64,000 nucleotides of DNA from an uncultured Actinomycetes bacterium (GCA_963823255.1 CAWGKU010000002.1:52907-116906), one strand, 5' to 3'. Shown: positions 1-21,277, counted from the first letter of the stretch. Made by a program: numbers and translations. Notes: a model not told the origin generated them from the sequence alone.

Positions 1-89
1 GCTCCCCGCGCGAGAGCGCGGCGAGGCGTTCGCGGATCGAGCCTTCGGACATGCCTCCCCCCGACCGGGGGAGATCGCAGCGCCGAAGG

Positions 90-1553: not shown

Positions 1554-1602
1554 CTCTATCGGGACGGCTCAGGTGGATGTTGAGCGGCGTGCCTCGGCGT
1601 GC

Positions 1603-4047: not shown

Positions 4048-4098
4048 GGGGTTGATGCTACCGAACCGACCCCGCCGGATCGGTGAACGTCGACCCGG

Positions 4099-4875: not shown

Positions 4876-4887
4876 GCGTCCAACCTC

Positions 4888-5430
4888 TCACCCCGAGGTC
4901 GCGGACGCCACCTCCGGGAAGCTCCGTTCGTACCAGGCGACGTCCCAGTATCGCCCGAACTTGCGCCCCTGCTCCGTGTAGTAGCCGACTCGGCGGAACC
5001 CGAACCGCTCGTGCAGGCGCACGGACACCGGGTTCGGCATCCCGATCCCGGCGTACGCGCGGTGGACGTCCTCGCGCTCGAGCTCCGACAGGAGCGCCTC
5101 GTACAGGGCCGAACCCAGTCCCTGCCCCACGTGGCTCGGCGCGACGTAGACGCTCGTCTCGACCGAGGGCGCGTAGGCGGCCCTCGGTCGGTAGGGCAGG
5201 CTCGCGGTGTACGCCACCGCCCTGCCGTCGTCGCGAGCGACCAGCAGCCGATGACGCCCCGACGTGTCGAACATGGAGAACCACTGGCGGCGCACGTCGG
5301 CGCTCGGTACCTCGAGGTCGAAGCTGATCGCCGACGTCCGGACGTAGTGCCCGTAGATCTCAGAGATCGCCTCGAGGTCCTCGAGCGAGCCGGACGCTAT
5401 CGCGACGTCCGAGGCGGTCATGGCGTCCAT
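4888..5430 (-). CDS. GNAT family N-acetyltransferase (phosphinothricin-acetyltransferase-like)
   Basis: C-terminal 180 aa of ORF 4888..5994. Has a GNAT motif (VAPSHVGQGLGSALYEALL) and an ATG at 5430. Confidence 0.7.
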   Translation of the reverse strand: MDAMTASDVAIASGSLEDLEAISEIYGHYVRTSAISFDLEVPSADVRRQWFSMFDTSGRHRLLVARDDGRAVAYTASLPYRPRAAYAPSVETSVYVAPSHVGQGLGSALYEALLSELEREDVHRAYAGIGMPNPVSVRLHERFGFRRVGYYTEQGRKFGRYWDVAWYERSFPEVASATSG

Positions 5431-5497
5431 CTTCCCGAACGACCGCGCGAACGTGGTTACGCGTGCGTTACGCCTGCGTGACAGCCCGTCAGGGCGA

Positions 5498-5964
5498 TCA
5501 GCGCGCCGCGAGCTCCCGCAGGTAGTCGTCGAGGCGGTCCCAGGTCTCGGCGGCACCTTCCTCCATCCCGGTCTCGAGGAGGGCGTCGCGCTGCTCGACC
5601 GTGTCGAACTCCGCCGTGCTGGTGAGCGTCGTCTTGCCGTCGTGCTCCTCGAACTCGTAGGTCTCGGGCCCCGGTTCGCCCTGCATGCCCTCGAACCCGA
5701 ACGTCCACACGAACCGCTCGGGGCGGAGGATCTCGCGGTACTCGCCGAAGAACGCGGGGGTCGAGTACTCCCCCCTTCGGGACCCTGGTGCACGATCCGC
5801 CAGGTGCCGCCCGGGCGGAAGTCGATCTCGCACGTCACGACCTCGTACTTGCGGGGTCCCCACCAGTTGGACATGTGCTCGCACGAGCTGTGCGCATCGA
5901 ACACGAGCTCGCGCGGCGCGTCGAAGACCCGGGTCATCACGATCTTCCGTCCCGGCGTCTCCAT
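5498..5964 (-). CDS. SRPBCC/AHSA1 (activator of Hsp90 ATPase homolog-like) domain protein; one frameshift near 5770 in a G-homopolymer
   Basis: N-terminal part METPGRKIVMTRVFDAPRELVF...WRIVHQGPEGG is in one frame. The C-terminal part EYSTPAFFGEYREILRPERFVWTFGFEGMQGE... is in ORF 5498..5884. Confidence 0.65.
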
Positions 5965-5998
5965 CGTGTGCTTGTAGCTACCGTTCCCGCCCATCGCC

Positions 5999-6361
5999 CT
6001 ACTCCTTCCTCGCTCCGTGTCCTCGGCCTCGTCCCTGGAGCTCGTCCAGGTACTCGTCCAGTCGGTCGTAGCGCTCGTCCCAGAACCGGCGGTACCGGTC
6101 GGTCCACGCGGCGACCTCCTTGAGCGGCGCCGCTCGCAGCCGCGCCGGCCGCCACTGGCGCTCCCTCCCCCGCGAGATGAGCCCCGCGTGCTCGAGCACC
6201 TTGAGGTGCTTCGACACGGCGGGCAGGCTCATCTCGAAGGGTTCCGCGAGCTCCGTGACCGAGGCCTCTCCCTTCGCCAAGCGCGCGAGGATCGCTCGCC
6301 GGGTCGGGTCGGCGAGGGCTCCGAACGTCCGGTCGAGTCGCTCCGCCGTCGTCGTCGTCAT
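5999..6361 (-). CDS. ArsR/SmtB family transcriptional regulator
   Basis: 120 aa with an ArsR-type HTH (LADPTRRAILARLAKGEASVTELAEPFEMSLPAVSKHLKVLEHAGLI). Sits upstream of the SRPBCC/GNAT genes. Confidence 0.8.
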   Translation of the reverse strand: MTTTTAERLDRTFGALADPTRRAILARLAKGEASVTELAEPFEMSLPAVSKHLKVLEHAGLISRGRERQWRPARLRAAPLKEVAAWTDRYRRFWDERYDRLDEYLDELQGRGRGHGARKE

Positions 6362-6525
6362 TCAACCTCCCGGTTACTGAACTGAACGGTAAATTACCTC
6401 GGCGCTCTGCGCCGCGTCAAGTGCCAGATCCGGCACGGATGGCGTTACGGAGCCGCGTGCCGATCGCTGCCGGGCCCTGGGGTCTCCGGTGCGAGGTCAA
6501 GCAGGTGGCGAAGCGCTGATCCGGT

Positions 6526-7146
6526 TCACGCAGGGACTTGCTGGCCGAAGTCTGCGCACTGCGCCGGGTTCTCGATCGTAGGGTCGATGTTGGCCAGACA
6601 GTCCCAGCTCGAGGGGATCGTCGCGGGCGGCGAGCCGATCACGATCGCGATCTCCTCGCCCTTCTTCAGGACGATGGTCGAGATCGGTTGGGTGTACCTC
6701 GTGCCGTCCACGTAGGCCTCGAGCTTCGTGCCGGGGCTGCAGTAACCACCGATGCAGTCGTTCGTCAGCCGCACGCCCCACTCCGTGAACAGCATCGCGA
6801 CGGTGAAGTCCTGCTCCTCCGGCGCCTCGATGTGGATCAGCCCGCTGGTGGCATGCGTGTGGAGCGGCGAGAACAGGCTCTGGTCCTCCCGCCCGATGCT
6901 CGAGGCGACGGGCTCGGACTTCCCGTCCACGAAGATGTCGACGTGCGAGTGGTAGTGCACGGTCAGCGACTCGGTCGACGAGGAGGGCAGCCCCGCGGCG
7001 TCGATGCGCTCCGCGACGTTGTCGGGGTTCGGCCAGGGAGCCGGCCCGGTGTCGAGCGTGAGGTCCGAGCCGCCCGAGTCCGATCCGCCGCAGGCAGCGG
7101 CGAGCAGGGCCAGCGCGAGCACGATGAACGAGGAACGCAGACGCAT
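6526..7146 (-). CDS. Secreted lipoprotein of unknown function
   Basis: Signal peptide with a lipobox (LLAAACGG). 206 aa. Confidence 0.55.
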   Translation of the reverse strand: MRLRSSFIVLALALLAAACGGSDSGGSDLTLDTGPAPWPNPDNVAERIDAAGLPSSSTESLTVHYHSHVDIFVDGKSEPVASSIGREDQSLFSPLHTHATSGLIHIEAPEEQDFTVAMLFTEWGVRLTNDCIGGYCSPGTKLEAYVDGTRYTQPISTIVLKKGEEIAIVIGSPPATIPSSWDCLANIDPTIENPAQCADFGQQVPA

Positions 7147-7345
7147 CCCGGCGATTCTACGAGTCCCGCGACACGCTTCGGGTCGCTGAGGAGAGCTGCC
7201 GGCGGCTCCGGGTCAGCCAGGAGGCTGCACGCCCCACGGCGAGCCGGTCGTTGAGAATGTGTAAGGGTCGCAGGGTCCAACTTGCGCCCTGGGAACGATG
7301 GACGGTAAGAATGCATCCCTTCCTTAACGAAAGAGGCGACCGGGC

Positions 7346-7564
7346 GTGGCCCAAGAACGGATCAGTCCGCTGGAAGAGTCGATCAGGGACCCGTTGCCGA
7401 GACTCAAGGAGCAGCTGATCGAGGAGTTCGAGGGACAGCGCGAGGACTTGATCGACCAGGCTGCCAAGCACTCGCTCGAGAGATACAAGAGTGCGAAGGT
7501 GCGAGAGTTCGTCCCGATCTTCGCCTGGCGACACGCTCGAAGGCACCTCCGCGGCGCCTCCTGA
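7346..7564 (+). CDS. Small hypothetical protein (72 aa), helical, acidic
   Basis: GTG start, with the RBS gaaagagg 7 nt upstream. GC3-rich codon usage on this strand. Lies in the low-GC block. Confidence 0.4.
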   Translation: MAQERISPLEESIRDPLPRLKEQLIEEFEGQREDLIDQAAKHSLERYKSAKVREFVPIFAWRHARRHLRGAS

Positions 7565-7597
7565 CCCTCATCGGGTGAGCTGCTTCGCCAACGCTCC

Positions 7598-7885
7598 CTA
7601 CGCGGGCGAAACGGTTGTCGCGCTCCGAAGCCTCGACATCTTCGAGAGGGCGTCGGCAACGATCGGACCACTCCGCGGAACGCCGTGTGAGCTCGTGATG
7701 TCACGCAGTGGGACCCTGACGAGCACTCCGTCACGCGTGAGCACCATGTACGTCTGCGCCTCGTCGTCGAAGTAGGCGAGCTGGCCCACGACGGTCCGAG
7801 CGTATCCACCGGGCGACTCGACCTCGAACGAGCGCTCGAGGGATCGAGACTCGGCTACGGTGCGAACCGTATCCACGGTGGTCAT
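7598..7885 (-). CDS. Small hypothetical protein (95 aa, MTTVDTVRTV...); downstream member of a coupled paralogue pair
   Basis: ATG at 7885 overlaps the TGA of the upstream gene (ATGA). The body contains YFDDEAQTYMVLTRDGVLVRVPLRDI. Confidence 0.4.
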   Translation of the reverse strand: MTTVDTVRTVAESRSLERSFEVESPGGYARTVVGQLAYFDDEAQTYMVLTRDGVLVRVPLRDITSSHGVPRSGPIVADALSKMSRLRSATTVSPA

Positions 7886-8082
7886 GCTGCTTCGCTCCAG
7901 AGGGACTGCCCACGTCCCATCGCCAGCCGATCCCATTGGGTGCTGCGGGATCCGTCCTGGAACGATCGCTCAGACGATGGGATCTCGGAACCGTCGTCCC
8001 ACGAGGGATCCAACGGGGACACCGGCCTAACTGGCGATCTCTCTGGGGCTTCGATGCGGACCGTGTCCATGAGGGTGGTCAT
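7882..8082 (-). CDS. Small hypothetical protein (66 aa, MTTLMDTVRIEAPERSP...); upstream member of the pair
   Basis: RBS gaggagg 5 nt before the ATG. Its N-terminus MTTLMDTVR is shared with the downstream gene (MTTVDTVR). Confidence 0.35.
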   Translation of the reverse strand: MTTLMDTVRIEAPERSPVRPVSPLDPSWDDGSEIPSSERSFQDGSRSTQWDRLAMGRGQSLWSEAA

Positions 8083-8275
8083 CGTGCCTCCTCGGTTCGA
8101 GGGGCTGCCCACGGCCTCTTCGCAAACGGTCCCAATGGATGGGTACTTCCCACCATTCTCTCACTTCGGGTGATGGGCACGACGGCCTGTGAATGCACCG
8201 CGAGCCCGCGCCGCCACCGCGAGCCGGGTAGTGTGACGATCGCAGGACCGGAGCCGAGCCGAGCGAGCGTGCGGG

Positions 8276-8533
8276 ATGCAGCCTGACCCACCACAAAGCG
8301 AACCTCGGAAGAAGCCTCTGAGCGGCATCGCCCGCGTCGCGATCGTCGTCGTCATCCTCGTCATCGCTGCCACCGTGATCGCACTCGTCATCTCAAGGGA
8401 CGACTCGGCTCCCACGACGACGGGGCCAACATCAACGGGGACGTCATCGGGCCCAACCTCGACGGGCCCTATCCAGTCGGGACCAACCTCATCGGGGCCA
8501 ACTTCGACTGGGCCAACCTCGATCGGGACCTAG
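8276..8533 (+). CDS. Small membrane-anchored protein with an extracytoplasmic GPTSTG repeat tail
   Basis: TM helix IARVAIVVVILVIAATVIALVI followed by six Gly-Pro-Thr-Ser-rich repeats. These are encoded by an 18-bp tandem DNA repeat. Confidence 0.45.
   Translation: MQPDPPQSEPRKKPLSGIARVAIVVVILVIAATVIALVISRDDSAPTTTGPTSTGTSSGPTSTGPIQSGPTSSGPTSTGPTSIGT
8423..8530 (+). repeat. Imperfect 18-bp tandem repeat (about six units) encoding the GPTSTG motif
   Basis: Recurring gggcccaacctcgacg-like units are visible in the sequence. Confidence 0.55.
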
Positions 8534-8809
8534 TCGAGAACGAGTGAACGCCGAACGTCCGGCGCGCCCAGAGATAGCCTCGGGGCCCACCGATCGGCTG
8601 GAGCTGGAAGCGGGGTTGCCGGCGCTGCTGGTGCCTAGAGCCGAGTGAAGCCGCGGAACTCGGTGGGTCCGACTGGACAGCCGCACCTTCCCGTTGCGAG
8701 CTCGTGAAGAATCGGGCGCGAGGGTGGCGGCGATACGCGTTCGCGGCGTACAAAGTGTGTCTCGGGACTGCTCAGGCGCAGACCCAATTCGCCGTAAGGG
8801 AGAGGGAAC

Positions 8810-8998
8810 GTGAAGAAGGCACTCGCGGTCGCTCTCATCGTCGGGTTCCTGCTGGTGGACTTCCTCTTCTTCCACGACATCTTCAAGGCTGGAGAGGCCG
8901 TGACGTTCGCGCAGTACCTCACCGGAGTGCTCAGCATCCCCGTGCTCGTCGTCTCCGCGCTCTTCCTCTTGCGAGGCACCCACGACGTACAGAAGTAG
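8810..8998 (+). CDS. Mini-membrane protein (62 aa, two predicted TM helices)
   Basis: MKKALAVALIVGFLLVDFLFF...VLSIPVLVVSALFLL. Preceded by the RBS agggagaggg. Confidence 0.45.
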   Translation: MKKALAVALIVGFLLVDFLFFHDIFKAGEAVTFAQYLTGVLSIPVLVVSALFLLRGTHDVQK

Positions 8999-9127
8999 TT
9001 CCGGGTCCAACCGAGCAGGCCCTTCGTCGTTCCCGGGTGCTTCGACGACGACCCCAAGCACCACGGCCCCGAACGGTCTCCAAACCACGATCTGCCGGAG
9101 TCACTTGTTGGATGAGCCATCCGACCT

Positions 9128-9176
9128 GCGTTTCTCTGTGGACCCAAGGGGATTCGAACCCCTGACCTTCTGGCTG
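9128..9176 (-). repeat. Displaced 3' half of tRNA-Ala (49-bp perfect direct repeat of 16209..16257); putative attR of an integrated element
   Basis: Identical to the intact tRNA-Ala from the anticodon stem to the 3' end. The 5' half of the tRNA is absent here. Confidence 0.85.
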
Positions 9177-9411
9177 CCAGCCAGACAGGGCTAAACGGTG
9201 TGCTGACCAGCGGAAAACGCAGGTCAGGAGCGAGCGGAACGGCCGATGTTATTCGCTGAGGAACTCGAGTCGGTCCCGCGTCACGAGCGCCTGGAGGATC
9301 GCGGCGAACTCGGGATCGGCGTCCTGCTCGTCGACCGAGGGAGTGGGCGGAGAAGGTCCGAGCGTGGGCGAAGGCGTGGCGAGCGGCGCGTCCCTGGCGC
9401 TAATAGGGTAG

Positions 9412-9771
9412 GTGCAGGAAGCTGCTTCCAACCAGGAGGGCGAACCTGTGGAAGAGATCAGGCTGTGGCGAGCCAGCCGCCAGCAGCTTGTTGGCATGGT
9501 GTACCTGGATAAGGGCGTCCTCGACCTGGATATCCAGGACGATCATGAGCGAGCCCTGGTCGAGGAGGTCCTCGAGCAGACCGGGCAAGTGACCTGGTCA
9601 TTCAGCCGGTTCGACGAAGGCGAGTGGCAGGAGAACATCGCTGAGCCTCGCACCGATCGATGGCTCTGGTTCGTGGTGGCGAACATCTTGTACCCGATGG
9701 GGTACCAGGCCGACTTGGGCATAAGCGAGGAAGGCGAGCCGACCGGCTCGGGAAGGTTCAGCAGAACTTGA
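9412..9771 (+). CDS. Hypothetical protein (119 aa), acidic
   Basis: ORF lying in the island immediately inside the tRNA-fragment repeat. No motif recognised. Confidence 0.35.
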   Translation: MQEAASNQEGEPVEEIRLWRASRQQLVGMVYLDKGVLDLDIQDDHERALVEEVLEQTGQVTWSFSRFDEGEWQENIAEPRTDRWLWFVVANILYPMGYQADLGISEEGEPTGSGRFSRT

Positions 9772-10273
9772 TCTACATCGTTCAGGTCTGCAAGGAACAC
9801 GACCCCGACCCGCGGCGGTCGATGCCGCTACCGAAGCCACCCGGCTCCGTGCCGATCGGCCAACGTCCGCGGCGGTAGCTCTCACCCTGCGCCGGGTCGC
9901 GTACTGCCTCCGTACTGCCTCGGGCCGACCCACCGGACTACATCGAACGGGGGTCGGTCGATCCGCTGATTCCATCGGGAGACCAACCTCCTTACGATCG
10001 TGGCTGGACCCTCCCTTCCTTGTAAGCCGGGTCCGTGGGAGCCCCGCTGCGGCAGCTGCGGGGCTTCCCCAATTTGTCAACAGACCCTCCGGCTAGCATC
10101 TCGGCGATGGCTCGACGGGAACGCGACATCCTCGAATGCGCCGTTCCTACTCTCCCCTTCTGAGGGGACCCGTTTGATTGGGCCTCGGCGGGAAGTAGTC
10201 CGGCGACGAACCAACGCTACATCGGGCCGATCGACTTTCGGAGATCGGCCGCTCCTGGGGTGGCGGTATCGCC

Positions 10274-11348
10274 TTGCAGCGCGGGCGACAAGACACGACA
10301 CTTGGGCCGTGGGAGCCTTCCGACGAGCTTCGACGAGTCGTCACCCGGTTCTTCGAGGCCGTTCGTGATGGCGACGAACAGGCCGTCAGCAACCGGATCT
10401 CACGACAGCCTGGGTTCGAGCGGTTTGGCACCGATCCGGCGGAATGGTGGCGGGACGGTGAGGAGGCTGCGCTCGTCTGGACACAGCAGATGCGGGAGAT
10501 GGGTGGTGGATACCCGTGGCAATTGACCGATGGTGTCTTCGCGATGACGGAAGGCAGCACCGGATGGGCTCTTGGCAGAGCGGAGTTCCAGTCCCCGCTC
10601 GGCCCAACCCAGTTCCGATTCACGTGCGTACTGCATCTGGAGCACGGAGATTGGAAACTGGTGCAGTTTCACAGCTCGGTGCCAACGACCAATGAAGAGC
10701 ACGGGTTCCTCCTGACGACCTCCGTCGATCAGATCGCCGAGTCGGTCAGTGCGGTACGGCCCGACCTGTCGGGGACGTCCGCGTCGGATGGCACGGTGAC
10801 AATCGCGTTCACGGACATCGAAGACTCAACACGTCTCAACGAGTTCCTCGGTGATCAACGTTGGCTGGAGGTCCTGCGTGCGCACAACGACGTGGTAAAG
10901 GTCGTCACCGCCGACTTCGGCGGAACGGTCGTCAAGAATCAGGGTGACGGCTTCATGCTGGCCTTCTCGTCTGCGCGGCGTGCGTTGAACTGCGCTGAGG
11001 CGATCAAACGAACGATCACCGATCGGTCTCCGAGATCCGGGCTCGCCGATCCGAGTCCGCATCGGTATCCACGCTGGCGAGATGGTACGTGAAGGGGACG
11101 ACTTCTTTGGTCACGCCGTTAGCTACACGGCTCGAATCGCATCTACGGCTGCCGGTGGCGAGATCGTCGTTTCGTCCCTTGTCCATCAGCTCGTCGCGCA
11201 GAGCGGCGAGTTTGCTTTCGGCGAAGCTCGCGTAGTGGAGTTGAAGGGGATCGAAGGGTCGCATCTCGTCTACCCAGTCGTCTTCTCGACCCCGGACCCT
11301 GAGCCCGCCGAGAGCGCGAGACCCTCGAGCACACCGTCCGCGCCGTAA
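10274..11348 (+). CDS. NTF2-like (SnoaL/DUF4440-like) domain fused to a class III adenylate/guanylate cyclase; frameshift near 11030-11060
   Basis: N-terminal NTF2-like fold (FFEAVRDGDEQ...FRFTCVLHLEHGDWKLVQFHSS). The cyclase core FTDIEDSTRLNEFLGDQRWLEVLRAHNDVVKVV...GDGFMLAFSS continues in ORF 11082..11348 (RIRVRIGIHAGEMVREGDDFFGHAVSYTARIAS). Confidence 0.75.
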
Positions 11349-11534
11349 CCGAGTACGCGGTCGCCGCGAGCCTGCTGTTCATCCCGTGGACGTGCAGCAT
11401 CTAGAGCGTCAACTCCCGTGAGCCCCCTCGACGCCCTCGGACCGGCTCCCTGCGCCGAACTGCTCCAGGTTTTGATGCTCCCCGACTTCGAACGAGCCGA
11501 CCGGATCGGCGAGTTCTGGACCTACCCGGAGAGC

Positions 11535-11584
11535 CGCGCCTTCGCTTAGCTCCTGATCGACTGCGAGGAGGACCGGACGCTCCG
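11535..11584 (+). repeat. Copy A of an imperfect ~50-bp direct repeat flanking the protease gene
   Basis: tgatcgactgcgaggaggaccggacgctccgggcggtgctcgtcgggatg, compared with 12615..12666 (about 85% identity). Confidence 0.6.
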
Positions 11585-11747
11585 GGCGGTGCTCGTCGGG
11601 ATGCTCCGGGAAGCTGATCGCTAGGGCAGGACGCAGCAGGAGCCGCGCAGCAAGGCGAGCCTCGGACGGACGAGAGGCTCAAGCGCACTGAGAGCCGCTT
11701 CTACGTCACATGAGGGAGGTTAAAGCGCCCGCACCAGTGTTGGCTGA

Positions 11748-12545
11748 GTGGCCCGATTCGAAGGAGACGGGTCAATGAGGCGCTTGCTCGCGCTCATCGC
11801 AGCATCGCTGCTGTTCGTGTTCGTGCCGGGATCAGCCAGTGCTATCACGAACGGGCAGCCGGACACGGGAAACACGTATCGGTCTGTTGGGCTACTCGCC
11901 TTCTACGACTCCGACGGCGTGTACATGCATCGGTGCACCGGCACCTTGCTCTCGCCAACGGTGGTCTTGACCGCCGCACATTGCACGGACGGAACCGCCA
12001 CGGCGTACGCTTACTTCTCGGTCAATGTGCCCGATGACTTCAGGGAGAACCCGACCGGCAACCTTGGGACGACCTTCACCCATCCTGATTTCGGGACCAA
12101 CTTGCACAACGATGTCGGTGTCGTCGTCCTCGACGACCCGATGAACCTGAGCGAGTACCCGGTTCTCGCGCCGGAGGGGTTTCTGACCGAGCTCAAGGAC
12201 GCGCACGAGATCCAAGACGATACCTTCGTGGCAGTTGGCTACGGACTCCTCAACGGATCGCCGCCACCGAATCTCCTGCCCAATGAGAGCCGCTGGTTCG
12301 GAGTGTCCCCGTATCGAGGCCTGAAGAAGAACAACCTGCATCTGTTCCAGAACCCGGTTCCGAACGGGGCAGGCGGGACGTGCTTCGGCGACTCCGGTGG
12401 CCCGCACTTCTGGAACGACACATTGATCCTCGCCTCCGTAACGAGCTGGGGAGACGCAGTCTGTCGCTCCAACGATCAGACACAACGCGTGGATATCCCC
12501 TCAGTGTTGGACTGGCTGGAGGAGGAGTTCGGCATCGCTCCTTGA
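11748..12545 (+). CDS. Secreted trypsin-like (S1 family) serine protease
   Basis: Signal peptide, His-site motif TAAHC, and Ser-site motif GDSGGP. Confidence 0.85.
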   Translation: MARFEGDGSMRRLLALIAASLLFVFVPGSASAITNGQPDTGNTYRSVGLLAFYDSDGVYMHRCTGTLLSPTVVLTAAHCTDGTATAYAYFSVNVPDDFRENPTGNLGTTFTHPDFGTNLHNDVGVVVLDDPMNLSEYPVLAPEGFLTELKDAHEIQDDTFVAVGYGLLNGSPPPNLLPNESRWFGVSPYRGLKKNNLHLFQNPVPNGAGGTCFGDSGGPHFWNDTLILASVTSWGDAVCRSNDQTQRVDIPSVLDWLEEEFGIAP

Positions 12546-12614
12546 TCCTGAGGTTGGGCTCCCTCCGTTCTTTGGCGGGAGCCTTCCCTCTTTGGGTCAC
12601 CCTTTTCCGCAATG

Positions 12615-12666
12615 CTGATCGGACTGCGAGGAGGATCAGGTGCTCCGGGCAGTGCTCGTCGGGATG
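12615..12666 (+). repeat. Copy B of the imperfect ~50-bp direct repeat
   Basis: tgatcggactgcgaggaggatcaggtgctccgggcagtgctcgtcgggatg. Confidence 0.6.
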
Positions 12667-12788
12667 TTGCGAGGCGCTTCCTGGGCCTGAAATGGCGGCA
12701 CCAGTAGCTTGCTCGGACGGCTTCTCCGCCTGCCGCTCGACAGGCTCGAACCGAGACGTTCGGAAGAACCAACTCTCCAGCTGGTTCC

Positions 12789-13937
12789 TTAGTTGTTCGT
12801 GCGTACGGGTGAGGTCGCGGCCGAACAGATGTCGGCGCCAGCGTTCAGAGTGACTTTGGGCGCCTTGGCGCGATACTTGCCAGGCTTGTCTTTGATCTTC
12901 TTCTTGTAAGACCCGCTCGCATCGGTAGTCGTGCTTCCCACGTTCTTCCAGCCACCACTGGTCTTGCGCTGGATCTTGACGGGAACGCTCGCGGTGCATG
13001 CGGTGAACCCGTCGCTCGCGCTGACGACCCCCTTAGCGACCAGGTGCTTCTTCAGCTTCAGCGTGACGCTCCTCGAATGCGAGGTGCTCACCGTGAAGTT
13101 GGACGTGCTGGTCGCCGAGCCGAGCGGGGTCGTCACCTTGATCGGCCCGGTCGTCGCACCAGCAGGGACCGTCGCCGTGATCTTAGTCGACGGGGCGACT
13201 TTGAACGTGGTTGCGGAAACCCCGTTGAAGGTCACGGCGGTCGCTCCGGTGAAGTTCGTCCCGGTGATCGTGACGGTCGTCCCGACCGGCCCGAAGGTCG
13301 GCGTGAACGAGGTGATTGTGGGGACGCCGGTGCTCGTGACCGTGAACCTCTGGGAGCTGCAGGCAGTTCCGCCAAGCGTTGTCACGCAGATCTTCCCGGT
13401 GGTCGCGCCGCTCGGGACCGTCGCCGTGGTTTGGGTCGACGAGACGACGTTGAACGTCGTGGAGGAAACCCCGTTGAACTTCACGCTCGTTGTCCCGGTG
13501 AAGTTCGTTCCGATGATGGTGACCGACGTGCCCACGGGACTGCTGGTGGGCGTAAACGAGGTGATCGTCGGCTTGGCGGCGGTCGTGGTGACCGTGAAGC
13601 TTTGGGAACTGCAGTCGGTTCCTCCAGGCGTTGTCACGCAGATCTTCCCGGTGGTCGCGCCGCTTGGGACCGTCGCCGTGATTTGGGTCGACGAGCCGCC
13701 CGAGAAGGTCGTGGCCGACGTTCCCCCGAATGTCACGGCCGTTGCGCCGGTGAGGTTCGTCCCGGTGATCGTGACGATCGTCCCGATCGGCCCAGAGGTC
13801 GGGGTGAACGAGGTGATCGTTGGTTTGGTCGGCGGAGCGGCCGAGGACGGGGTTGCGATGGCCATCGCCGCGACCACGATCACGGAGAGAATTGCGGCTC
13901 GAGCGAGGGCCGCCGGAACCATGGCTGGCCGCCTCAT
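12789..13937 (-). CDS. Secreted cell-surface protein with three IPT/TIG-like repeats
   Basis: Signal peptide from the ATG at 13937, with RBS gggagggg. Three copies of ITSFTPTSGPVGTxVTIxGTNFTGxTxVxFxGVSxTTF...ATVPSGATTGKICVTT. Confidence 0.7.
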   Translation of the reverse strand: MRRPAMVPAALARAAILSVIVVAAMAIATPSSAAPPTKPTITSFTPTSGPIGTIVTITGTNLTGATAVTFGGTSATTFSGGSSTQITATVPSGATTGKICVTTPGGTDCSSQSFTVTTTAAKPTITSFTPTSSPVGTSVTIIGTNFTGTTSVKFNGVSSTTFNVVSSTQTTATVPSGATTGKICVTTLGGTACSSQRFTVTSTGVPTITSFTPTFGPVGTTVTITGTNFTGATAVTFNGVSATTFKVAPSTKITATVPAGATTGPIKVTTPLGSATSTSNFTVSTSHSRSVTLKLKKHLVAKGVVSASDGFTACTASVPVKIQRKTSGGWKNVGSTTTDASGSYKKKIKDKPGKYRAKAPKVTLNAGADICSAATSPVRTNN

Positions 13938-14171
13938 AGGAATCCCCTCCCTTGTTCCACGCGATTCATACACCCGCGCTATCAACGCCTGCCAACCGCC
14001 AAATCGCGTAGGCCCGCATGGGGCGAGGAAGAGAGCAAGTTGTGCGGCCGAGAAACCACCTCGATCCCGCGTGACGTAGATGAGCCGTGGCCGCGAGCCG
14101 AGCGGTCCATCCCGCCGCCGCGCCCAGAGCCAGCGCCGCACGGCGATCCGGCGGTCAGGGGCGAGCCGCGC

Positions 14172-14573
14172 TCATTCCGAACGTCCGGGCTTCACTGGGC
14201 TCCTTCGCCACGGGACGACGCCCTCGAGCTCGATGTCCATCGAGAAGCTGAGGAACGTCCGCACGAGCACGATGACACCGAGCGTGATTGCGCTGTCGAG
14301 GGTCGAATCGACCGTGATCGTCTCGACTATGTCGGCGATGATCAGGATCTCAAGCCCGAGCAGGATCGCTCGGCCGACGTCTCGCCGGACGCCCTTGTAT
14401 GCCTCGAGGGGCCGGCGGCGAACCAGCTCGACCACGAACCTTGCGAAAGCGAGGACCGAGCCGACGACGAGCACCACGACGCCGGCGACCTCGAACCCTC
14501 GGACGACGTTCTTCATCGCGTCTTCGAAAGTCGCCGAGCCGATCATCCTTCCCCTTTCCCGGTCCTCGTTCAC
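14172..14573 (-). CDS. Small membrane protein (DUF1622-like)
   Basis: Hydrophobic helices VAGVVVLVVGSVLAFARFVV and LLGLEILIIADIVETI. Lies downstream of SulP on the same strand. Confidence 0.5.
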   Translation of the reverse strand: MNEDRERGRMIGSATFEDAMKNVVRGFEVAGVVVLVVGSVLAFARFVVELVRRRPLEAYKGVRRDVGRAILLGLEILIIADIVETITVDSTLDSAITLGVIVLVRTFLSFSMDIELEGVVPWRRSPVKPGRSE

Positions 14574-14596
14574 GTACGACGGACGCTGGCCCTGAG

Positions 14597-16195
14597 CTAC
14601 GGTCGTTCCGGCGGCTCGGCTCGCCCTGCGATGCTGCGGGTCGCGACGTCGGCCGCCTCGCGGACGGAGGCGAAGACGCGATCCGCCCCGACCTCATCGA
14701 TCGCGCCGGCGCGTCTCCACTGATCCTCTATCGCCGACTCCACGCGGGCGATCGCGAACCAACGACCGCTCGCCTTCATCTCCCTCGCCATGCCGATCAG
14801 CACATCGGCTCCGTCCGTGTCGGTGAGCGACACCGCCTCCCCGTCGACGACCACAGCCGCGATCGGTACGTCGGACTCCGAGATCAGCGCCATCACGCTG
14901 TCGTTGAACCTGTTTGCGTTGGCGAAGAAGAGCGGACCGTCCAGGCGCACGACGAGGACGCTCGGTTCGACGATGAGCCCTTCGTTCCGCTCAACGTCGA
15001 GGTAGGTGTCCGAGGCCGGGTCCCTCCCCATGCGACGCAACTGTGGCCGGGACGAGTGTGCGATCAGCAGCAGGAGGGACAGCACGACGCCGAGCAGGAT
15101 CCCTCCGATGATCGACAGGAAGATGATCCCGAGCCCCGCGGCCATGAAGAAGACCCAATCCGAGCGGCTCACACGGAAGTACCGCGCCATCGTGCGGAAG
15201 TCGATCAGGCCGACCATCGCGTCGATCACGACTGCTCCCAACACGGCGGACGGGAGGTTGTCGAACAGGGCCGCCAGGAAGAGCATGGTGAGCAGGACGA
15301 ACGCCGCATCGATCAGCGAAGCCATCTGGCTCTTCTGTCCAGCTGCGTCTCCCACCGACGTCTTCGAGAGGCTCCCGTCGTTCACGAAACCGCCGACGAG
15401 TCCGGCACTCAGGCAGGCGACGCCCTCCGCCGCGAGCTCCTGATCCGTGTCGATCCCGTACCCATGCTTGGAGGCCATGGCGCGACCCGCTGCGAGCGTC
15501 TCCGAGTAGCCCACGAAGATGATGGCGAGCGCGCCAGCGATCAGGTCCGTGAGGTCCCCCCACACGCCCTGCGGGATCCCCACCGAGAACAGGCCTGTCG
15601 GCACCGTACCGGTGACGGCCACTCCGTGAGAGGTGAGGTCGAACGCGTTCACGGCGAGGATCGAGAGGACCACGGCGATGAGTGCACGGGGCCACTTGGG
15701 GAGGAGATACCGCATCAGCAGCAGGGCGACGAGCGCTGTGGCACCGACGGCGAGGGTAGGCAGGTTGGTATCGGGGATCTGCTTGATCGTGCCCACGAGT
15801 TCGTCCCAGTAGCTGCCGGACGTCTTGTCCACGCCGAACAGCTTGTAGGTCTGATCGATGATGATCCCGATCGAGAAACCGAGAACGAACCCGCTCATCA
15901 CGGCTCGGGAGAGGAAGTTGGAGATCCACCCCATCCTCGCGATCCTGAGGAGCAGATAGATGACCCCGGTGACGATCGCCAGAGCGGCGGTCACCGGCAC
16001 GGCCTTGCTCGTGTCGACGGCGGAGGCACCGACCAGTGGTGTGATGACGGCCAGCGAGACAGCGGCCACGCTTCCGCTGGGACCCTGCACGACATGTCTC
16101 GATGTGCCGAAGATCGCGTACGCGATCAGCGCGGCGAAGGCCGTGTAGAGGCCGTACTGGACGGGAACCCCGGCCAAGGTCGCGTTGTCGGGCAT
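14597..16195 (-). CDS. SulP family sulfate/anion permease with C-terminal STAS domain
   Basis: 532 aa, multi-TM SulP core and a STAS-like C-terminus. Confidence 0.85.
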   Translation of the reverse strand: MPDNATLAGVPVQYGLYTAFAALIAYAIFGTSRHVVQGPSGSVAAVSLAVITPLVGASAVDTSKAVPVTAALAIVTGVIYLLLRIARMGWISNFLSRAVMSGFVLGFSIGIIIDQTYKLFGVDKTSGSYWDELVGTIKQIPDTNLPTLAVGATALVALLLMRYLLPKWPRALIAVVLSILAVNAFDLTSHGVAVTGTVPTGLFSVGIPQGVWGDLTDLIAGALAIIFVGYSETLAAGRAMASKHGYGIDTDQELAAEGVACLSAGLVGGFVNDGSLSKTSVGDAAGQKSQMASLIDAAFVLLTMLFLAALFDNLPSAVLGAVVIDAMVGLIDFRTMARYFRVSRSDWVFFMAAGLGIIFLSIIGGILLGVVLSLLLLIAHSSRPQLRRMGRDPASDTYLDVERNEGLIVEPSVLVVRLDGPLFFANANRFNDSVMALISESDVPIAAVVVDGEAVSLTDTDGADVLIGMAREMKASGRWFAIARVESAIEDQWRRAGAIDEVGADRVFASVREAADVATRSIAGRAEPPERP

Positions 16196-16209
16196 ATTCC
16201 TGCAGGTAG

Positions 16210-16282
16210 TGGACCCAAGGGGATTCGAACCCCTGACCTTCTGGCTGCCAGCCAGACGCTCTACCAGCTGAGCTATGGGCCC
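16210..16282 (-). tRNA. tRNA-Ala (anticodon GGC)
   Basis: The cloverleaf folds by hand: acceptor gggccca/tgggtcc with the G3:U70 alanine identity pair, anticodon loop ctGGCag, T-loop ttcgaat. Confidence 0.85.
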
Positions 16283-16291
16283 GCGGGAGGC

Positions 16292-16690
16292 TCAGTCTAG
16301 CGAACCGGCTGCCGCCTGCTCCGAGCCGTTCCAGCCGAGTCGAGGCGCATCGCGCCACAGCCGCTCGAGGTCGTAGTACTCGCGCTCCTCCTGGGCGAAC
16401 ACGTGGACGACCACGTCGATGTAGTCGAGAAGCACCCAGCGCGAGTCGGCGTCGCCTTCGCGCCGGACCGGCTTCTCGCCCAGGTCCCGGACGGCCCGCT
16501 CCACCTCCTCGACGATCGTCTTGACCTGGCGATCGGTCTCGCCCGAGGCGATCACGAAGTAGTCGGTGATCACGATCAGGCCGTGCACGTCCAAGATCGT
16601 GACGTCCGCAGCCTGTTTGGCGGCCGCCGCGCGCGCCGCGGTCACGGCGATGTCGCGGCTCTCGGCGTGGGTGGCGTCGCTACCCGGCAC
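16292..16690 (-). CDS. rsfS: Ribosomal silencing factor RsfS (Iojap)
   Basis: ILDVHGLIVITDYFVIASGETDRQVKTIVEEV...VVHVFAQEEREYYDLERLW. Confidence 0.8.
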   Translation of the reverse strand: MPGSDATHAESRDIAVTAARAAAAKQAADVTILDVHGLIVITDYFVIASGETDRQVKTIVEEVERAVRDLGEKPVRREGDADSRWVLLDYIDVVVHVFAQEEREYYDLERLWRDAPRLGWNGSEQAAAGSLD

Positions 16691-16708
16691 GCCGTCCTTC
16701 GCTCATGC

Positions 16709-17680
16709 TCACCCGGTGAAGTCCTTCCCGATCACGACCGTCACAGGAGCGATACCCGAACCCACCGACACGGACACGCTCCCCACACCGAGCAAGTCTC
16801 GCACACGTTCGGCCAAGGCGACGTCGTCAGGCGAGCCCACCACGATCAGCGTCTCGGGGTGGTCGAAGTCCGAGGCGTTCTGCGAGACCGCTACGCGGAA
16901 TCCGCCGGGCAGCAGCTTCTCGGCCACCGCCTCGCCGATCCCCGGCACACCGTTGCCGTTCAGGACGATGACCGGCACAGCCTCCTCGGCCGGCCCGCCG
17001 AACGCCGCGACCAGCGCGTCCGTGACCTGTTCGGGGGTCGCTCGGAACACGCCGCTCGCCACCTCCGCGGCCTCGAGCGTGGCCACCTGCGCACCAGATG
17101 CGGCCTTGAGCATCCGGACCACGCTCGCCGGATGCTCGGCGTCGGCGAGATCGGCGGGAGACCAGGCCACGTCCGCGGCCAGCAGCGCCTCCATCACGAT
17201 CTGCAAACCCGCGACGTCGCCGGCACCCGACGCCTCGAACATGCCAGAGACGTCCCGCCCGTCGGCGAGCTCGCCACCGATCCGGACGCCGCCGACGTCG
17301 TCCGCGATCGCGGCGAGACGGTCGGCCTCGATCGTCGCGTGGTCCTCGATCCATACCCCGAGCAGGTTGCCGACGGCGGTGGCCGCCTGGCGCGGCGGGA
17401 GCCCCAGGGCGTCCCCGATCGTCGACTCGCCCTGGCCGGGGATCACGACCATCGCCTCCGGCGGCACGACGAGCGCGCCGCTCGTGCCGAACCCCGTGCT
17501 GCCGACGACGACCGGGAGCGGTCCCCCGTCGGTCGTCACCACCAGCAGCGCAAGCCCGGCGGCCGCGGGCGGCGTGACCTCGGGCTCGGTGCGAGCGCGT
17601 TCGCGCGCGATCAGGAGCGCGCCCGTGCCAGCGGTCGCCAGGACGGCCACGAGCACCAGCAGCGCCAGCCGTCGCGTCAC
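16709..17680 (-). CDS. LytR_C (LytR cell-envelope-related attenuator C-terminal) domain membrane protein
   Basis: N-terminal TM followed by a LytR_C-like C-terminus ([27 protein letters not shown]). Its GTG at 17680 overlaps the nadD stop (GTGA). Confidence 0.6.
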
Positions 17681-18279
17681 CGGTACAGCGCCGCCTTCTC
17701 GACGTAGCTCTTCACGCCCTCGGGGACCAGGTACCGGATCGGGCGGCCGTCGTGGATCCGTTCGCGGATGTCGGTCGAGCTGATCGCAAGCGCCGGGATC
17801 GTCATCATGCTGACGCTCGCGTCGCGCGCCGGGCCGGCCGCCTCGAACCTCGCGAGGTCGTAGCCGGGTCGCGTAGCCGCGATGAAGTGCGCGATCGACA
17901 GGACCTCGTCGGGATCCTTCCAGTCCAAGATCTCGAGCATCGCGTCGGCGCCGGTGATGAAGTAGAGCTCGGCGTCCGGGTTGTGGGCGCTGAGCGTGCG
18001 CAGGGTGTCGACGGCGTAGGTGGGTCCGTCCCGGTCGATCTCGACGCGGGAGACCTGGAAGCGCGGATTGCTCGCGGTCGCGATCACGGTCATCAGGTAG
18101 CGATCCTCGGCGGGCGAAACCACGCGCCCCTGCTTCATCCACGGATGTCCCGTCGGCACGAACACGACCGCGTCCAGGGCGAACTGCACCAGGGCCTCCT
18201 CGGCGGTCACGAGGTGGCCGTAGTGGATCGGGTCGAACGTGCCGCCCATGACCCCGAGCCGTCGTCCCACGGCGGCCAT
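17677..18279 (-). CDS. nadD: Nicotinate-nucleotide adenylyltransferase
   Basis: [12 protein letters not shown] (HxGH motif). 200 aa. Confidence 0.85.
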
Positions 18280-18330
18280 CCTACGGCTGCGACCAGCGAC
18301 GACGGTGGATTTCGCGCCCGGGCGGCGGGG

Positions 18331-18798
18331 CTAGGGCCGGCTCGTCCGGACCCATGCCTCGAGCTCGGGGGCGTGCCCGGCATAGTGCCGGGGCCCGCTC
18401 TCGTCGAACCACTCGTCGGCATCGGCCGTGAGCTCGGTCAGGGCCCCGAACCGCTCGAGCATCTCTGCTCGCGCCCGGTGCAGCTCGGCGCGGACCTCGT
18501 CCACCGGCATCGCTCGGGACCGTTCGAGCTCCCGATCGTTGATGCGGTTCACCTCGGTCTCCTCGTACGGCTCGCTGACGCGGTCGAACCTCCCCTCGGC
18601 GATCTCGCGGAGTGCGCGGGCGGCGTCGGCGCACCAGAACGCGACGTGCCACATCACGTCCCGCACGGCCCAGCCCTCGGCGTTGAGCCCGGGCGGTTCG
18701 AGGCGATCGGGCGGCACCGCGTCCAGCAGCGCGACGAACGCCTCCCAGCCCTCGGCCTCGGCACGCAGGAGCTCCTCACGCCGCGCCATCGCGCCCAC
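18331..18798 (-). CDS. Hypothetical protein, possibly DinB_2/MDMPI-N-like four-helix bundle
   Basis: 155 aa. A WAVRDVMWHVAFW motif resembles the DinB-like superfamily. Confidence 0.4.
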   Translation of the reverse strand: MGAMARREELLRAEAEGWEAFVALLDAVPPDRLEPPGLNAEGWAVRDVMWHVAFWCADAARALREIAEGRFDRVSEPYEETEVNRINDRELERSRAMPVDEVRAELHRARAEMLERFGALTELTADADEWFDESGPRHYAGHAPELEAWVRTSRP

Positions 18799-20026
18799 CC
18801 TCGGGGAGGTACTCGAACGCCACGTCGCCGATCACGACCTCGTCGCCGCGCCGGGCGCCCGCGGAGGCGAGCTCGCGCTCGACCCCTTCCTTGACCAGCC
18901 GGCGCTGGAGCCGCGCGAGCTTCTCGGGATCCTCGAGATCGGTCTCGGACACCCAGGTCTCCACGCCGCGACCGATCACCCTGAACCGCTCCCCCTCCTT
19001 CTTCACGATGAACCTCGGGCGGGCCGGGCGGAGCACCACGTACGCGCTGCGTTCCTCCGCCACCGCAGCCGCCCCGCGCGCGAACGACGCGATCCGTTCT
19101 CGCAGGGTGTCCAGCCCTTCCCCCGTGACGGCCGAGAGGGCGACCGCCCCGCTGCCGAGCGTCGACTGCGCGTCGGTACCGGGCGCGAGATCGAGCTTCG
19201 TGCCGACGACCAGGTTCGGCCTGGTCGCGAGCGAGGGGTCGTACGCGCGGAGCTCCTCGCGGACGGTCGCCAGGTCGGCGGGGGGATCCGGCGTCGAGAG
19301 GTCCACGACCAGCACGAGCGCTCGGCACCGGCTGACGTGTCGAAGGAACCGATGCCCGAGGCCCTTGCCTGCGTGCGCGCCCTCGACGAGCCCCGGGACG
19401 TCGGCCACGACGAACCGTTCATCCTCCCCGGCCACGCCGAGGTTGGGCGACAGGGTGGTGAACGGGTAGTCGGCGATCTTCGGGTGGGCGGCCGTGAGTG
19501 CAGCGAGGAGCGTCGACTTACCCGCGTTGGGCAGGCCGATCAGGCCGACGTCGGCCACGGTGCGGAGCTCGACGGCGAGCCGCTTCTCCTCTCCCTGCTC
19601 GCCGCCTTCGGATCCCTTCGGCACGCGGTCGCGCGAGGTGGCGAGCGACGCGTTCCCGCGACCGCCCCGCCCGCCCCGGGCGAGGACCGCGCGCGCTCCG
19701 TCGCCGACCAGGTCGGCCAGCAGGCCGTGCTCGTCCTCGATCCGGGTCCCGTCGGGGACCCGGATCACGAGGTCCTTGCCCTCCGCCCCGGTCTTGCCGC
19801 GCTTGCCGCCCGCGCCCCCGCTCTCGGCCCGCAGGTGCGGGTGATCGGCGAGCCACGCCAGGTCGCGGATCCCAGTGGACACCTCGAACACGACGTCGCC
19901 CCCACGGCCGCCGTCGCCCCCGTCCGGGCCACCCCGCGGGTTGTACGGCTCGCGGAGGATCGAGGACGATCCGTGGCCGCCGTTGCCCCCACGGGCGAAC
20001 ACGGTGAGCTCGTCGACGTAGGTCAT
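18776..20026 (-). CDS. obg: GTPase Obg/CgtA
   Basis: Glycine-rich Obg fold at the N-terminus, G1 motif GLPNAGKSTLL, and an OCT domain. Start MTYVDEL at 20026. Confidence 0.9.
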   Translation of the reverse strand: MTYVDELTVFARGGNGGHGSSSILREPYNPRGGPDGGDGGRGGDVVFEVSTGIRDLAWLADHPHLRAESGGAGGKRGKTGAEGKDLVIRVPDGTRIEDEHGLLADLVGDGARAVLARGGRGGRGNASLATSRDRVPKGSEGGEQGEEKRLAVELRTVADVGLIGLPNAGKSTLLAALTAAHPKIADYPFTTLSPNLGVAGEDERFVVADVPGLVEGAHAGKGLGHRFLRHVSRCRALVLVVDLSTPDPPADLATVREELRAYDPSLATRPNLVVGTKLDLAPGTDAQSTLGSGAVALSAVTGEGLDTLRERIASFARGAAAVAEERSAYVVLRPARPRFIVKKEGERFRVIGRGVETWVSETDLEDPEKLARLQRRLVKEGVERELASAGARRGDEVVIGDVAFEYLPEGGRDGAA

Positions 20027-20060
20027 GGACAGATTGTGGCCGAACCCGCACGTCCACGGC

Positions 20061-20536
20061 ATGATGGGGGGGTGCCGAGAGCCGTGACCGTGTGGGCCGT
20101 CGAGCTCGGGAAGGACGTCGAGCCCGACGAGATCAAGGGCACGCTCGAGCTCAGCGACCAGGCCCTGCTGTTCTCGCCGGACGAGGAGGCACGCCCGGCG
20201 ATGCGGATCGCCCTGCACGACATCGCCAAGGTCCGTCGCCTCCGCGGCTCACCGGTCCTGATGGTGGAGCGGACCACGTCGGCAGGCGCCAGGAAGACCG
20301 CCTTCTACTTCGCGCAGCCCCCGCCGCTCGCGGTGCTCATGGGGGCTCCGGTGGAGCGGCCGGTCGGGTTCGACCGGTTCCGGAGCCCCAAGCGCAAGGC
20401 GCGGCGGGACAACGTCGGCTACCTCGGCCTCATGAACCGCGAGAAGAAGTCGGCGCTGACCGAATGGGTTCGGGCGGTCAAGGACGCGGTGTCGAAGGCC
20501 GCGTCGGGACCGGATCAGGCGGCGGCGCAGGGCTGA
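20061..20536 (+). CDS. Hypothetical protein (158 aa) encoded between obg and rpmA on the opposite strand
   Basis: This is the C-terminal 158 codons of shadow ORF 18428..20536. It has protein-like composition (LELSDQALLFSPDEEARPAMRIALHDIAKVRRL...) and an ATG at 20061. Confidence 0.45.
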
Positions 20537-20573
20537 ACGAGGGTCGGATGTTCGGCGAGCGGGTGCGGCCGGG

Positions 20574-20825
20574 CTAGGGAGCCTGGACGGAGGCGTACCG
20601 GCGGCCGCGCGACTGGTGATACGAGACGATCCCCGGCTGCATCGCGAAGAGGGTGTCGTCCCCTCCACGGCCCACGCCTTTGCCGGCGTGGATCCGGGTC
20701 CCGCGCTGGCGCACGATGATCGAGCCGGCGGTCACTTCCTGACCGCCGAACACCTTGACCCCGAGGCGCTTGGACTCGGAGTCTCGTCCGTTGCGGGACG
20801 AGCCGCCGCCCTTCTTGTGTGCCAT
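20574..20825 (-). CDS. rpmA: 50S ribosomal protein L27
   Basis: [29 protein letters not shown]. Confidence 0.9.
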
Positions 20826-20857
20826 CGCGTGTTCGAGCCTACCAGAGGGTTCCCGCG

Positions 20858-21262: not shown

Positions 21263-21277
21263 CGTGTCTCCTATCGC

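Follow-up and report, generated by a model that had tools for sequence, protein, structure and literature searches.

We examined a 64-kb window of DNA from an uncultured Actinomycetes bacterium (GCA_963823255.1 CAWGKU010000002.1:52907-116906; positions are counted from its first letter) and found that a 7-kb island beside the tRNA-Ala(GGC) gene is very probably what is left of an integrative element. Window positions 9187-16208, together with a 49-bp core repeat at each end, would derive from an element that inserted into the 3' part of the tRNA gene and later lost its recombinase by deletion. The window, whose source appears to be a metagenome assembly, was compared with same-species contigs, related loci and metagenome contigs (labelled L001-L206), its nearest relatives being soil metagenome-assembled genomes and ENA metagenome assemblies. 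Scanning species-representative genomes with RsfS yielded 66 loci from uncultured soil Actinomycetota, while same-species contigs were obtained by exact match to the window's RsfS protein (n = 10 examined) and shared 96-99% nucleotide identity with the window across 7.8 kb and 9.2 kb of flank.

A precise insertion at the tRNA-Ala gene

The two cores, which correspond to the left and right attachment sites of the element (attL at 16209-16257, attR at 9138-9186), form a direct repeat that is identical at 49/49 positions according to both a repeat finder and an exact search. None of 100 dinucleotide-preserving shuffles yielded any match, so a perfect repeat of this length is not expected by chance. 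An earlier note on this DNA, made from the sequence alone, had reported the perfect repeat and placed its right copy correctly, but its left copy (9128..9176) was set 10 nt too low. The position that it gave for the intact minus-strand tRNA gene agrees with ARAGORN and Rfam (Table 1), and the 5' half of the tRNA is indeed missing at the second site, being single-copy in the window and present only at 16258-16282. We found no duplicated 3' part for the other two tRNAs of the window, and an Rfam scan of 5500-17500 revealed no known RNA family besides the tRNA. The block of identity extends from tRNA position 26 to the 3' end. In two shorter same-species islands, the attR copy carries mismatches at tRNA positions 29 and 33 (L075) or 26-29 (L073); judging from the identity block and these mismatches, we infer that the crossover would have occurred in or just 3' of the anticodon loop.

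An empty site was found in four contigs from different assemblies (L067, L068, L069 and L070), which encode an identical RsfS protein and are 97-99% identical to the window in the flanks. On these contigs, window positions 24000..16209 and 9186..1 align back to back and overlap exactly on one 49-mer. Their bacterial attachment site (attB) equals the sequence left of attL plus the sequence right of attR (junction sequences), with the tRNA-Ala and its single 49-mer joined directly to window position 9137 and downward. Since the same-species junction coincides with one 49-mer to the base, the window has, relative to the four contigs, a precise insertion of 7,071 bp, made up of 9187-16208 and one copy of the repeat. 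Past its attR core the window continues with the native flank AGAGAAACGCAGGTCGG, which is identical in the empty-site contigs. The earlier note had suggested looking in close relatives for an empty tRNA-Ala site, which they do contain, but it expected rsfS to follow the tRNA directly, which is the wrong side: rsfS is located 5' of the tRNA in every genome, and in the empty site the 3' neighbour is the sequence from 9137 downward.

Synteny on the rsfS side, which in the window comprises rsfS, nadD and a LytR_C gene, extends no further than the 3' end of the tRNA in any of the 66 related loci. The conserved left side, comprising leuS and its neighbours, resumes at window coordinates that differ between genomes, so the interval from tRNA-Ala to leuS is hypervariable. 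Same-species contigs hold at least five alternative contents at the site, and the cargo of the window is absent from all ten examined. Other islands at this tRNA carry the same repeat, with second copies matching at 49/49 (L001 and L009), 47/49 (L075) or 45/49 positions (L005 and L073).

The island also differs from its surroundings in base composition. The guanine plus cytosine (GC) content is 0.641 for 9187-16208 versus 0.708 for the rest of the window, a real contrast as the earlier note had claimed, though not the approximately 60% against 72% that it gave. GC content at third codon positions (GC3) is 0.71-0.87 in island genes versus 0.90-0.95 in core genes (rsfS, nadD, leuS and their neighbours). 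Windowed profiles, which had been proposed as a check, set the island region apart from its flanks: of all 7-kb intervals in the 64 kb, those with the lowest GC and the most deviant tetranucleotide use cover it.

The integrase family and the missing recombinase

In relatives, the orthologous tRNA-Ala is directly followed by a gene for a XerC/D-like tyrosine integrase of 306-309 amino acids (aa). The L035 protein matches Pfam Phage_integrase (E=9e-32) and a SAM-like N-terminal domain and scores 173 bits against NCBIfam XerC, below the cut-off of 335 bits. It is closest to XerC and XerD but falls well under both cut-offs, and neither Pfam nor NCBIfam gives the integrase a match to a separate domain for arm binding. 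The gene is intact in L035, L079, L080 and L081, frameshifted in L002 and cut by contig ends in L010 and L014, while the same-species contig L073 retains a 24-aa remnant (tblastn). In both L035 and L002 the open reading frame (ORF) directly follows a conserved post-tRNA arm. A database search returned more than 1,000 clusters of homologues of about 307 aa, and all three homologues whose context was examined followed the order rsfS, tRNA-Ala(GGC), int. The closest integrases of cultured phages are actinophage tyrosine integrases with 30-36% identity (maximum 36% in 50,697 phage records).

Both ends of the window island resemble elements of this family. The integrase-distal (P) arm beside the attR core spans 74 nt and carries the motifs CAGCGAATAACAT and GCACACCGTTTAGCCC and a hairpin (CTGACC..GGTCAG); its counterpart in the complete elements L080 and L081 lies upstream of the second repeat copy, and by this homology the window island belongs to that element family. 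At the other end, a 13-nt stub of the integrase-side (P') arm, TACCTGCAGGAAT, matches the start of the arm in integrase-bearing relatives (CACCTGCGGGAAT in L035 and L079; TACCTGCGGAAAC in L018) and is unlike the native flank AGAGAAACGCAGG. The conserved post-tRNA arm of island-bearing genomes reads TACCWGGGNAAACGC, followed after about 15 nt by TTGCACACCGC..CAGCGGATAACAT; the window lacks this remainder of the P' arm as well as the integrase. Its stub is fused to a SulP gene that lacks the first 39 codons, including the first transmembrane helix (TM1). Consistent with this truncation, the Pfam Sulfate_transp match begins at profile position 23 of 380 (protein residue 5), and the protein aligns from residue 102 of prestin and residue 44 of SLC26Dg, which is the end of TM1 in solved SLC26 structures. 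Full-length homologues of 568 aa (98% identical) and 583 aa (94%) are 36-51 residues longer, and DNA homology of the SulP region to L078 and L077 starts at window position 16185. This arrangement is most simply accounted for by one deletion between arm position 14 and codon 40 of SulP, which would have taken the integrase promoter and gene.

Two further observations concern the arms. At L005:10483-11190, a gene-less 708-bp unit between the tRNA and the second repeat copy (45/49) consists essentially of the two conserved arms and is the extreme end of a decay series. In addition, throughout the clade the native flank of tRNA-Ala has CGCAGGTCAG a few nucleotides downstream of the gene (seen in the post-tRNA flanks of many loci), and its reverse complement, CTGACCTGCG, is present in the P arm of the element, so the attR core is flanked by an inverted repeat of 12-14 nt (window positions 9121-9131 and 9207-9219). 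The heptamer AGGTCAG is also found within tRNA-Ala. The inverted repeat and the heptamer could be recombinase binding sites, or a coincidence.

Searches of the window for a recombinase agreed with the earlier note, which had named no integrase or mobility gene. Pfam detected none among the island ORFs, scanning 9187-10273 and 11349-11747 in six frames against Pfam (E<=10) returned nothing, and tblastn with the family integrases at E<=1 gave no match in the 64-kb window. An integrase pseudogene in these non-coding stretches, for which the note had suggested a search, was rejected because both the six-frame scan and tblastn were blank. Excisionase, relaxase, FtsK/Tra and Rep domains were found neither in the island ORFs nor in the six-frame scans. 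With no conjugation module (FtsK-like Tra, type IV secretion) and no replication gene among its ORFs, the island was not assigned to the integrative and conjugative elements (ICEs) or their actinomycete type (AICEs). Similarly, it was not assigned to prophages or phage satellites, since Pfam and tblastn revealed no phage genes for structure, packaging or replication; when every protein of the L080 and L081 elements was compared with window 6000-16400 by tblastn, nothing rose above noise, the best match (E=0.009 over 33 aa) lying outside the island. The island is thus without an integrase while relatives hold one after the same tRNA, in line with the note's view that the recombination machinery has been lost.

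In the reading that we favor, site-specific recombination by an integrase of the 306-309 aa family would have placed the element in the 3' part of tRNA-Ala(GGC). The element would have contributed a duplicate of the tRNA part that extends from the anticodon stem to the 3' end, and because of this copy the gene would have been kept intact at attL while the original 3' part moved to attR. A deletion starting 13 nt past the tRNA would have removed the rest of the P' arm, the integrase and everything up to SulP codon 40, leaving a remnant with both cores and the P arm but no recombinase. We infer that integration came first and deletion second, and that the island is at present immobile; renewed movement would occur only with an integrase supplied in trans or via homologous recombination of the flanks.

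A rather improbable alternative is that the island never had an integrase. It would then have been a non-autonomous circle of core plus P arm, integrated in trans by a co-resident phage-like member of the family, which amounts to mobilization of the CIME (cis-mobilizable element) or satellite type and not to decay in place. Such a history would suit the majority of islands at this tRNA in relatives, which have the repeat yet lack an integrase (L001, L009, L075, L073 and L005) and among which the gene-less L005 unit is just two arms between repeats, and core sites might suffice for an integrase that is short, XerC/D-like and without an arm-binding domain match. However, the 13-nt P' stub breaking into the middle of a gene resembles a deletion scar and not a designed end, L073, with its integrase remnant, demonstrates for the same species that elements at this site do decay in place, and no family integrase is present anywhere in the 64-kb window.

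Very unlikely, in our estimate, is an origin by homologous recombination, in which the whole hypervariable interval from tRNA-Ala to the leucyl-tRNA synthetase gene was swapped in from a related strain via the conserved flanks and the repeats are fossils of an integration in another lineage. Almost all relatives do differ in this interval despite flanks of 92-99% identity, and the variety of contents within the species (at least five) fits such exchange. As an account of how the structure arose it is no rival, however, because the repeats, the arms and the empty site would still need a site-specific event somewhere; moreover, the sequence left of attR (9137 downward) is the same as in the empty-site contigs, and the difference is confined exactly to the repeat-bounded unit. 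Homologous replacement may nevertheless explain how a given strain got its island. Finally, that an assembler joined two genomes at a common 49-bp tRNA sequence is extremely improbable: the source appears metagenomic and the island junctions are not in any other contig retrieved, but for an artifact, chimeric joining would have to happen twice independently at one 49-mer and with the correct order and orientation, the attR arm has homology to the arms of genuine elements, the attL stub matches an element arm, the repeat is shorter than typical reads and k-mers, and 97%-identical cargo exists in an independent sample.

Several observations weigh against integration followed by loss of the recombinase. 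The attL and attR junctions of the island occur in one assembly alone, and no contig combining the same cargo with an integrase was found, so the progenitor is unseen and the deletion is deduced. There is no trace in the window of the phage-like genes of L080 and L081. The islands that relatives carry at tRNA-Ala are mostly without an integrase too, which could instead point to integration in trans. The anomaly in GC and tetranucleotide use is not limited to the repeat-bounded unit but also spans 7217-9137 (GC 0.642). In L078, the sole other contig with the cargo, the order is TIG 3' end, 376 nt, full-length SulP and DUF1622, unlike the window, where TIG comes after DUF1622. The cargo has therefore been further rearranged, and a single deletion does not explain its order; tandem duplication, circular permutation or rearrangement could account for the difference. 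On the other side stand the empty sites, the composition, the integrase of relatives and the homology of the arms, which together bear out the attL/attR footprint of a tRNA-3'-end element that the earlier note had described.

The note had also called the element old, which the data do not favor. The repeats are identical, the island is absent from same-species contigs and its GC3 has not shifted to the host value, all of which argue against old age, as do the long open frames kept by the SulP, TIG, protease and DUF1622 genes. Loss of the integrase does not call for old age either, since it needs just one deletion. Overall, the island looks recent.

The segment at 7217-9137 is a low-GC stretch of small ORFs that is present in same-species empty-site contigs. 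It is missing in L001 and L073, where the second repeat copy directly joins the homologue of window 7216 and downward, and partly missing in L071. No tRNA fragment remnant was found at its left end, and the segment may be an older accretion with an eroded attachment site. More generally, tandem accretion left of 9138 was rejected because no older degenerate tRNA fragments were detected there, either by searching with 18-mers (3 mismatches allowed) or by aligning the 7216 junction locally. Within the segment, 15-nt periodic repeats at 8418-8527 (families D4 and D5) encode a pentapeptide-repeat-like stretch, ANINGDVIGPNLDG...NLIGANFDWANLD, in a short ORF.

Among the alternative islands at tRNA-Ala, three encode giant BTAD/kinase-nSTAND1-WD40 proteins (L003:11592-16679, L009:11523-16952 and L071:12554-17679), which are STAND NTPases of a type often linked to conflict systems. 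The 36-bp duplications in L072 and L074 could be the scar of an earlier event or an assembly error.

Table 1. Features of the window island and of related loci at the tRNA-Ala site. Positions refer to the window unless a contig is named.
Feature	Position or size	Strand	Evidence and remarks
tRNA-Ala(GGC), intact	16209..16282	-	ARAGORN; Rfam RF00005 tRNA 16210-16282, 72.4 bits
attL core: tRNA-Ala 3' 49 nt	16209-16257	-	Repeat search
Integrase-side (P') arm stub, 13 nt	16196..16208	-	Reads TACCTGCAGGAAT in tRNA orientation
SulP/STAS anion permease gene, 5'-truncated	14597..16195	-	Pfam
DUF1622 membrane protein gene	14172..14573	-	Pfam PF07784, E=9e-21
Secreted/surface protein gene, three IPT/TIG domains	12789..14141	-	Pfam TIG E=2.6e-29, three stretches; NCBIfam CoaZ repeat
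R fragment: isolated copy of last ~60 nt of p93	12613..12675	+	Repeat family D7; p93 matches by blastn and tblastn
Trypsin-like S1 serine protease gene with signal peptide	11748..12545	+	Pfam Trypsin E=6.9e-19
p93 pseudogene	11401..11616	+	No 5' end, in-frame stop; 92% aa identity to L075 p93 residues 30-92
SnoaL_3 (NTF2-like) and class III nucleotidyl cyclase fusion	10274..11348	+	Pfam matches in two ORFs
119-aa ORF	9412..9771	+	Coding-like GC3 0.78
Integrase-distal (P) arm beside attR core	9187..9260	-	Homologous to arms in L080, L081, L075, L009 and L005
attR core: displaced tRNA-Ala 3' 49 nt, without 5' half	9138..9186	-	Repeat search
L075 island (same species)	2.9 kb		Second repeat copy 47/49
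L073 island (same species)	1.3 kb		Second repeat copy 45/49
L071 island (same species)	7 kb		Cupin and BTAD-kinase-STAND-WD40 gene
L076 (same species)			Another content at the tRNA-Ala site
L072 and L074, degenerate tandem copy	L072:10483-10520; L074:7922-7960		36 bp of tRNA 3' end plus 9 nt of flank, directly after tRNA
L080 complete element	~9.0 kb		Perfect 47-bp repeats of tRNA 3' part; int, AAA_25, HNH, TerS, TerL
L081 complete element	~9.9 kb		Perfect 47-bp repeats; int, ClpP, DUF3631, portal, S78 protease, TerL-like

Island cargo and p93 fragment arrays

Pfam matches confirmed the cargo listed in the earlier note, namely SnoaL_3 plus cyclase, a trypsin-like protease, a three-TIG protein, DUF1622 and SulP/STAS (Table 1). 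The cyclase is frameshifted, as the note had said: alignment to the paralogue at 47153-48946 revealed a single frame switch near 11010-11045, between residues 515 and 520 of the paralogue. Because related assemblies contain many split genes, this frameshift may be a sequencing error. The TIG gene holds three 252-bp internal repeats (family D1), and its true start is likely the ATG near 13940. For the 119-aa ORF we found no Pfam, NCBIfam or PADLOC match.

Similar cargo was recovered from an independent sample in L078, a low-coverage contig of 2,890 bp whose cargo is 97-99% identical to that in window 12788-16185 and in which SulP and DUF1622 are likewise linked. An exact-sequence search with the SulP, DUF1622 and protease sequences of the window returned no record elsewhere. 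Plasmid origin was rejected, as a comparison with 72,556 plasmids revealed no meaningful DNA similarity. A defense island was also rejected, given that PADLOC yielded just weak PycC-type matches (best E=6e-6) to the generic cyclase domain and none to the other cargo. Elsewhere in the window, a LipJ-like gene at 47153-48600 (alpha/beta-hydrolase plus class III cyclase), directly downstream of a tRNA-Pro at 48611-48685, is paralogous to the island cyclase domain (38-40% identity).

The earlier note had mentioned coding-like remnants within the island; one of these, at 11401-11616, is now identified as a pseudogene of a specific small gene, p93, which we defined from L075:12301-12582. A second piece of the gene, the R fragment, stands directly after the protease gene and has no in-frame upstream ORF, so that pseudogene and fragment bracket the protease. 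The p93 protein has 5,493 homologous clusters in the protein collection, with a core of about 72 aa that is >90% identical among the best matches, but no match in Pfam, NCBIfam or PADLOC. Substitutions among DNA copies fall mostly at third codon positions (0.066, 0.040 and 0.175 at positions 1, 2 and 3, respectively), identifying p93 as a coding gene. An AlphaFold model with a predicted local distance difference test (pLDDT) score of 80 comprises five helices and had no PDB fold match at E<1.

We surveyed 120 soil metagenome loci carrying p93 3' sequence and found at least two p93 3' copies in 73, with all copies in the same orientation in 71 of the 73. These arrays hold up to 11 copies per locus, mostly 0.25-1.5 kb apart with single-gene spacers in between, and the 5'-truncated fragments have fixed 3' ends and 5' ends that peak at about 205-215 of the gene but are scattered. 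The arrays are often near tRNA genes, and one adjoins a related integrase. Recurrent neighbors are cyclases, extracytoplasmic function (ECF) sigma factors, LuxR regulators and TIG proteins, with cyclases the most recurrent large ones. Besides the window, loci with p93 or fragment arrays are L018, L006, L001, L076, L082-L086 and L087-L206 (soil Actinomycetota).

An integron, with cassettes separated by attC sites, was considered for these arrays and rejected on four grounds. On neither strand does folding of the R repeat surpass that of shuffled sequence (z -0.8 to +0.7), so there is no hairpin signal; there is no IntI, the family integrase scoring 63 bits against the integron-integrase model (cut-off 265); cargo orientation is mixed (57 versus 38); and a 1,092-bp indel between two 99.8%-identical p93 loci, the one such pair, does not end at R. 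More speculatively, about half of the island (10274-14141) might be a piece of a widespread and undescribed p93 array, in which single-gene units would be serially inserted at the p93 3' end by a recombinase acting in trans, each restoring the gene and displacing the old end. We regard this as unlikely; the proposed accretion would work like that of tRNA-integrating elements, in which the gene is restored and the old end displaced, and p93 arrays would, if it is true, be a cassette-accretion system specific to soil Actinomycetota.

Relation to known elements and significance

The island is a CIME-like remnant. CIMEs are decayed derivatives of ICEs or of IMEs (integrative and mobilizable elements) which keep attL and attR but have lost the genes for integration and transfer, and were defined for elements related to ICESt1 and ICESt3 in Streptococcus thermophilus (PMC5704250, citing Pavlovic 2004 and Bellanger 2011). 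Like these, the window island has an att core on each side, is located at a conserved gene's 3' end and is without integrase or transfer genes, and functional integrase-bearing elements in relatives use the same site, where turnover is high. It has kept both cores, attL and attR, intact, along with a conserved P arm at attR, although only 13 nt of the P' arm remain at attL and the function of the sites is putative. Unlike CIMEs, the parent family here looks phage- or satellite-like (terminase, portal, HNH) and not conjugative, one arm of the island is truncated, the host is an uncultured soil actinobacterium and cis-mobilization by accretion is hypothetical.

Classical tRNA-linked islands and prophages carry an adjacent tyrosine integrase, for example the islands with P4-like integrases at selC and asnT. 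The window island shares with them a tRNA that is intact at one end and whose 3' part recurs as a direct repeat at the other, atypical composition, an empty site in close relatives and a block of identity from the anticodon stem to the 3' end. It differs in having no site-specific recombinase gene next to the att site, and the integrase of its relatives, at 306-309 aa and XerC/D-like, contrasts with P4- or lambda-type enzymes of about 400 aa with an arm-binding domain. Precise mapping of such islands and prophages has been described (PMC7192596).

Two other comparisons are more limited. Phage satellites such as phage-inducible chromosomal islands (PICIs) resemble L080 and L081, which are about 9-10 kb long and combine a terminal integrase with a gene of replication type (AAA_25 or DUF3631) and an incomplete packaging or capsid set, but this likeness in gene content is limited to the relatives, as the window island has none of those genes. 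In Dehalococcoides, ssrA-specific genomic islands illustrate a small-RNA gene as a recurrent integration site for acquired islands (PMC3146451); the common point is a single small-RNA gene recurrently targeted within related genomes, whereas the target here is tRNA-Ala and not tmRNA and the alternatives are in different strains and not in tandem arrays in one genome.

The window island is therefore a well-known type of genomic island and not a new mechanism, and it leaves the understanding of tRNA-targeted integration unchanged; the p93 fragment arrays are the sole item here that could lead to something new. For annotation, the 7 kb are strain-specific accessory DNA with coding sequences for part of an anion permease, for one membrane and one surface protein, and for a protease and a cyclase. 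For the clade of uncultured soil Actinomycetota, tRNA-Ala(GGC) beside rsfS is a recurrent integration site, and the elements that use it now have a defined integrase family, a defined att core of 47-49 bp and defined conserved arms. Such elements are consequently easy to find and could in principle provide integration tools for this uncultured group.

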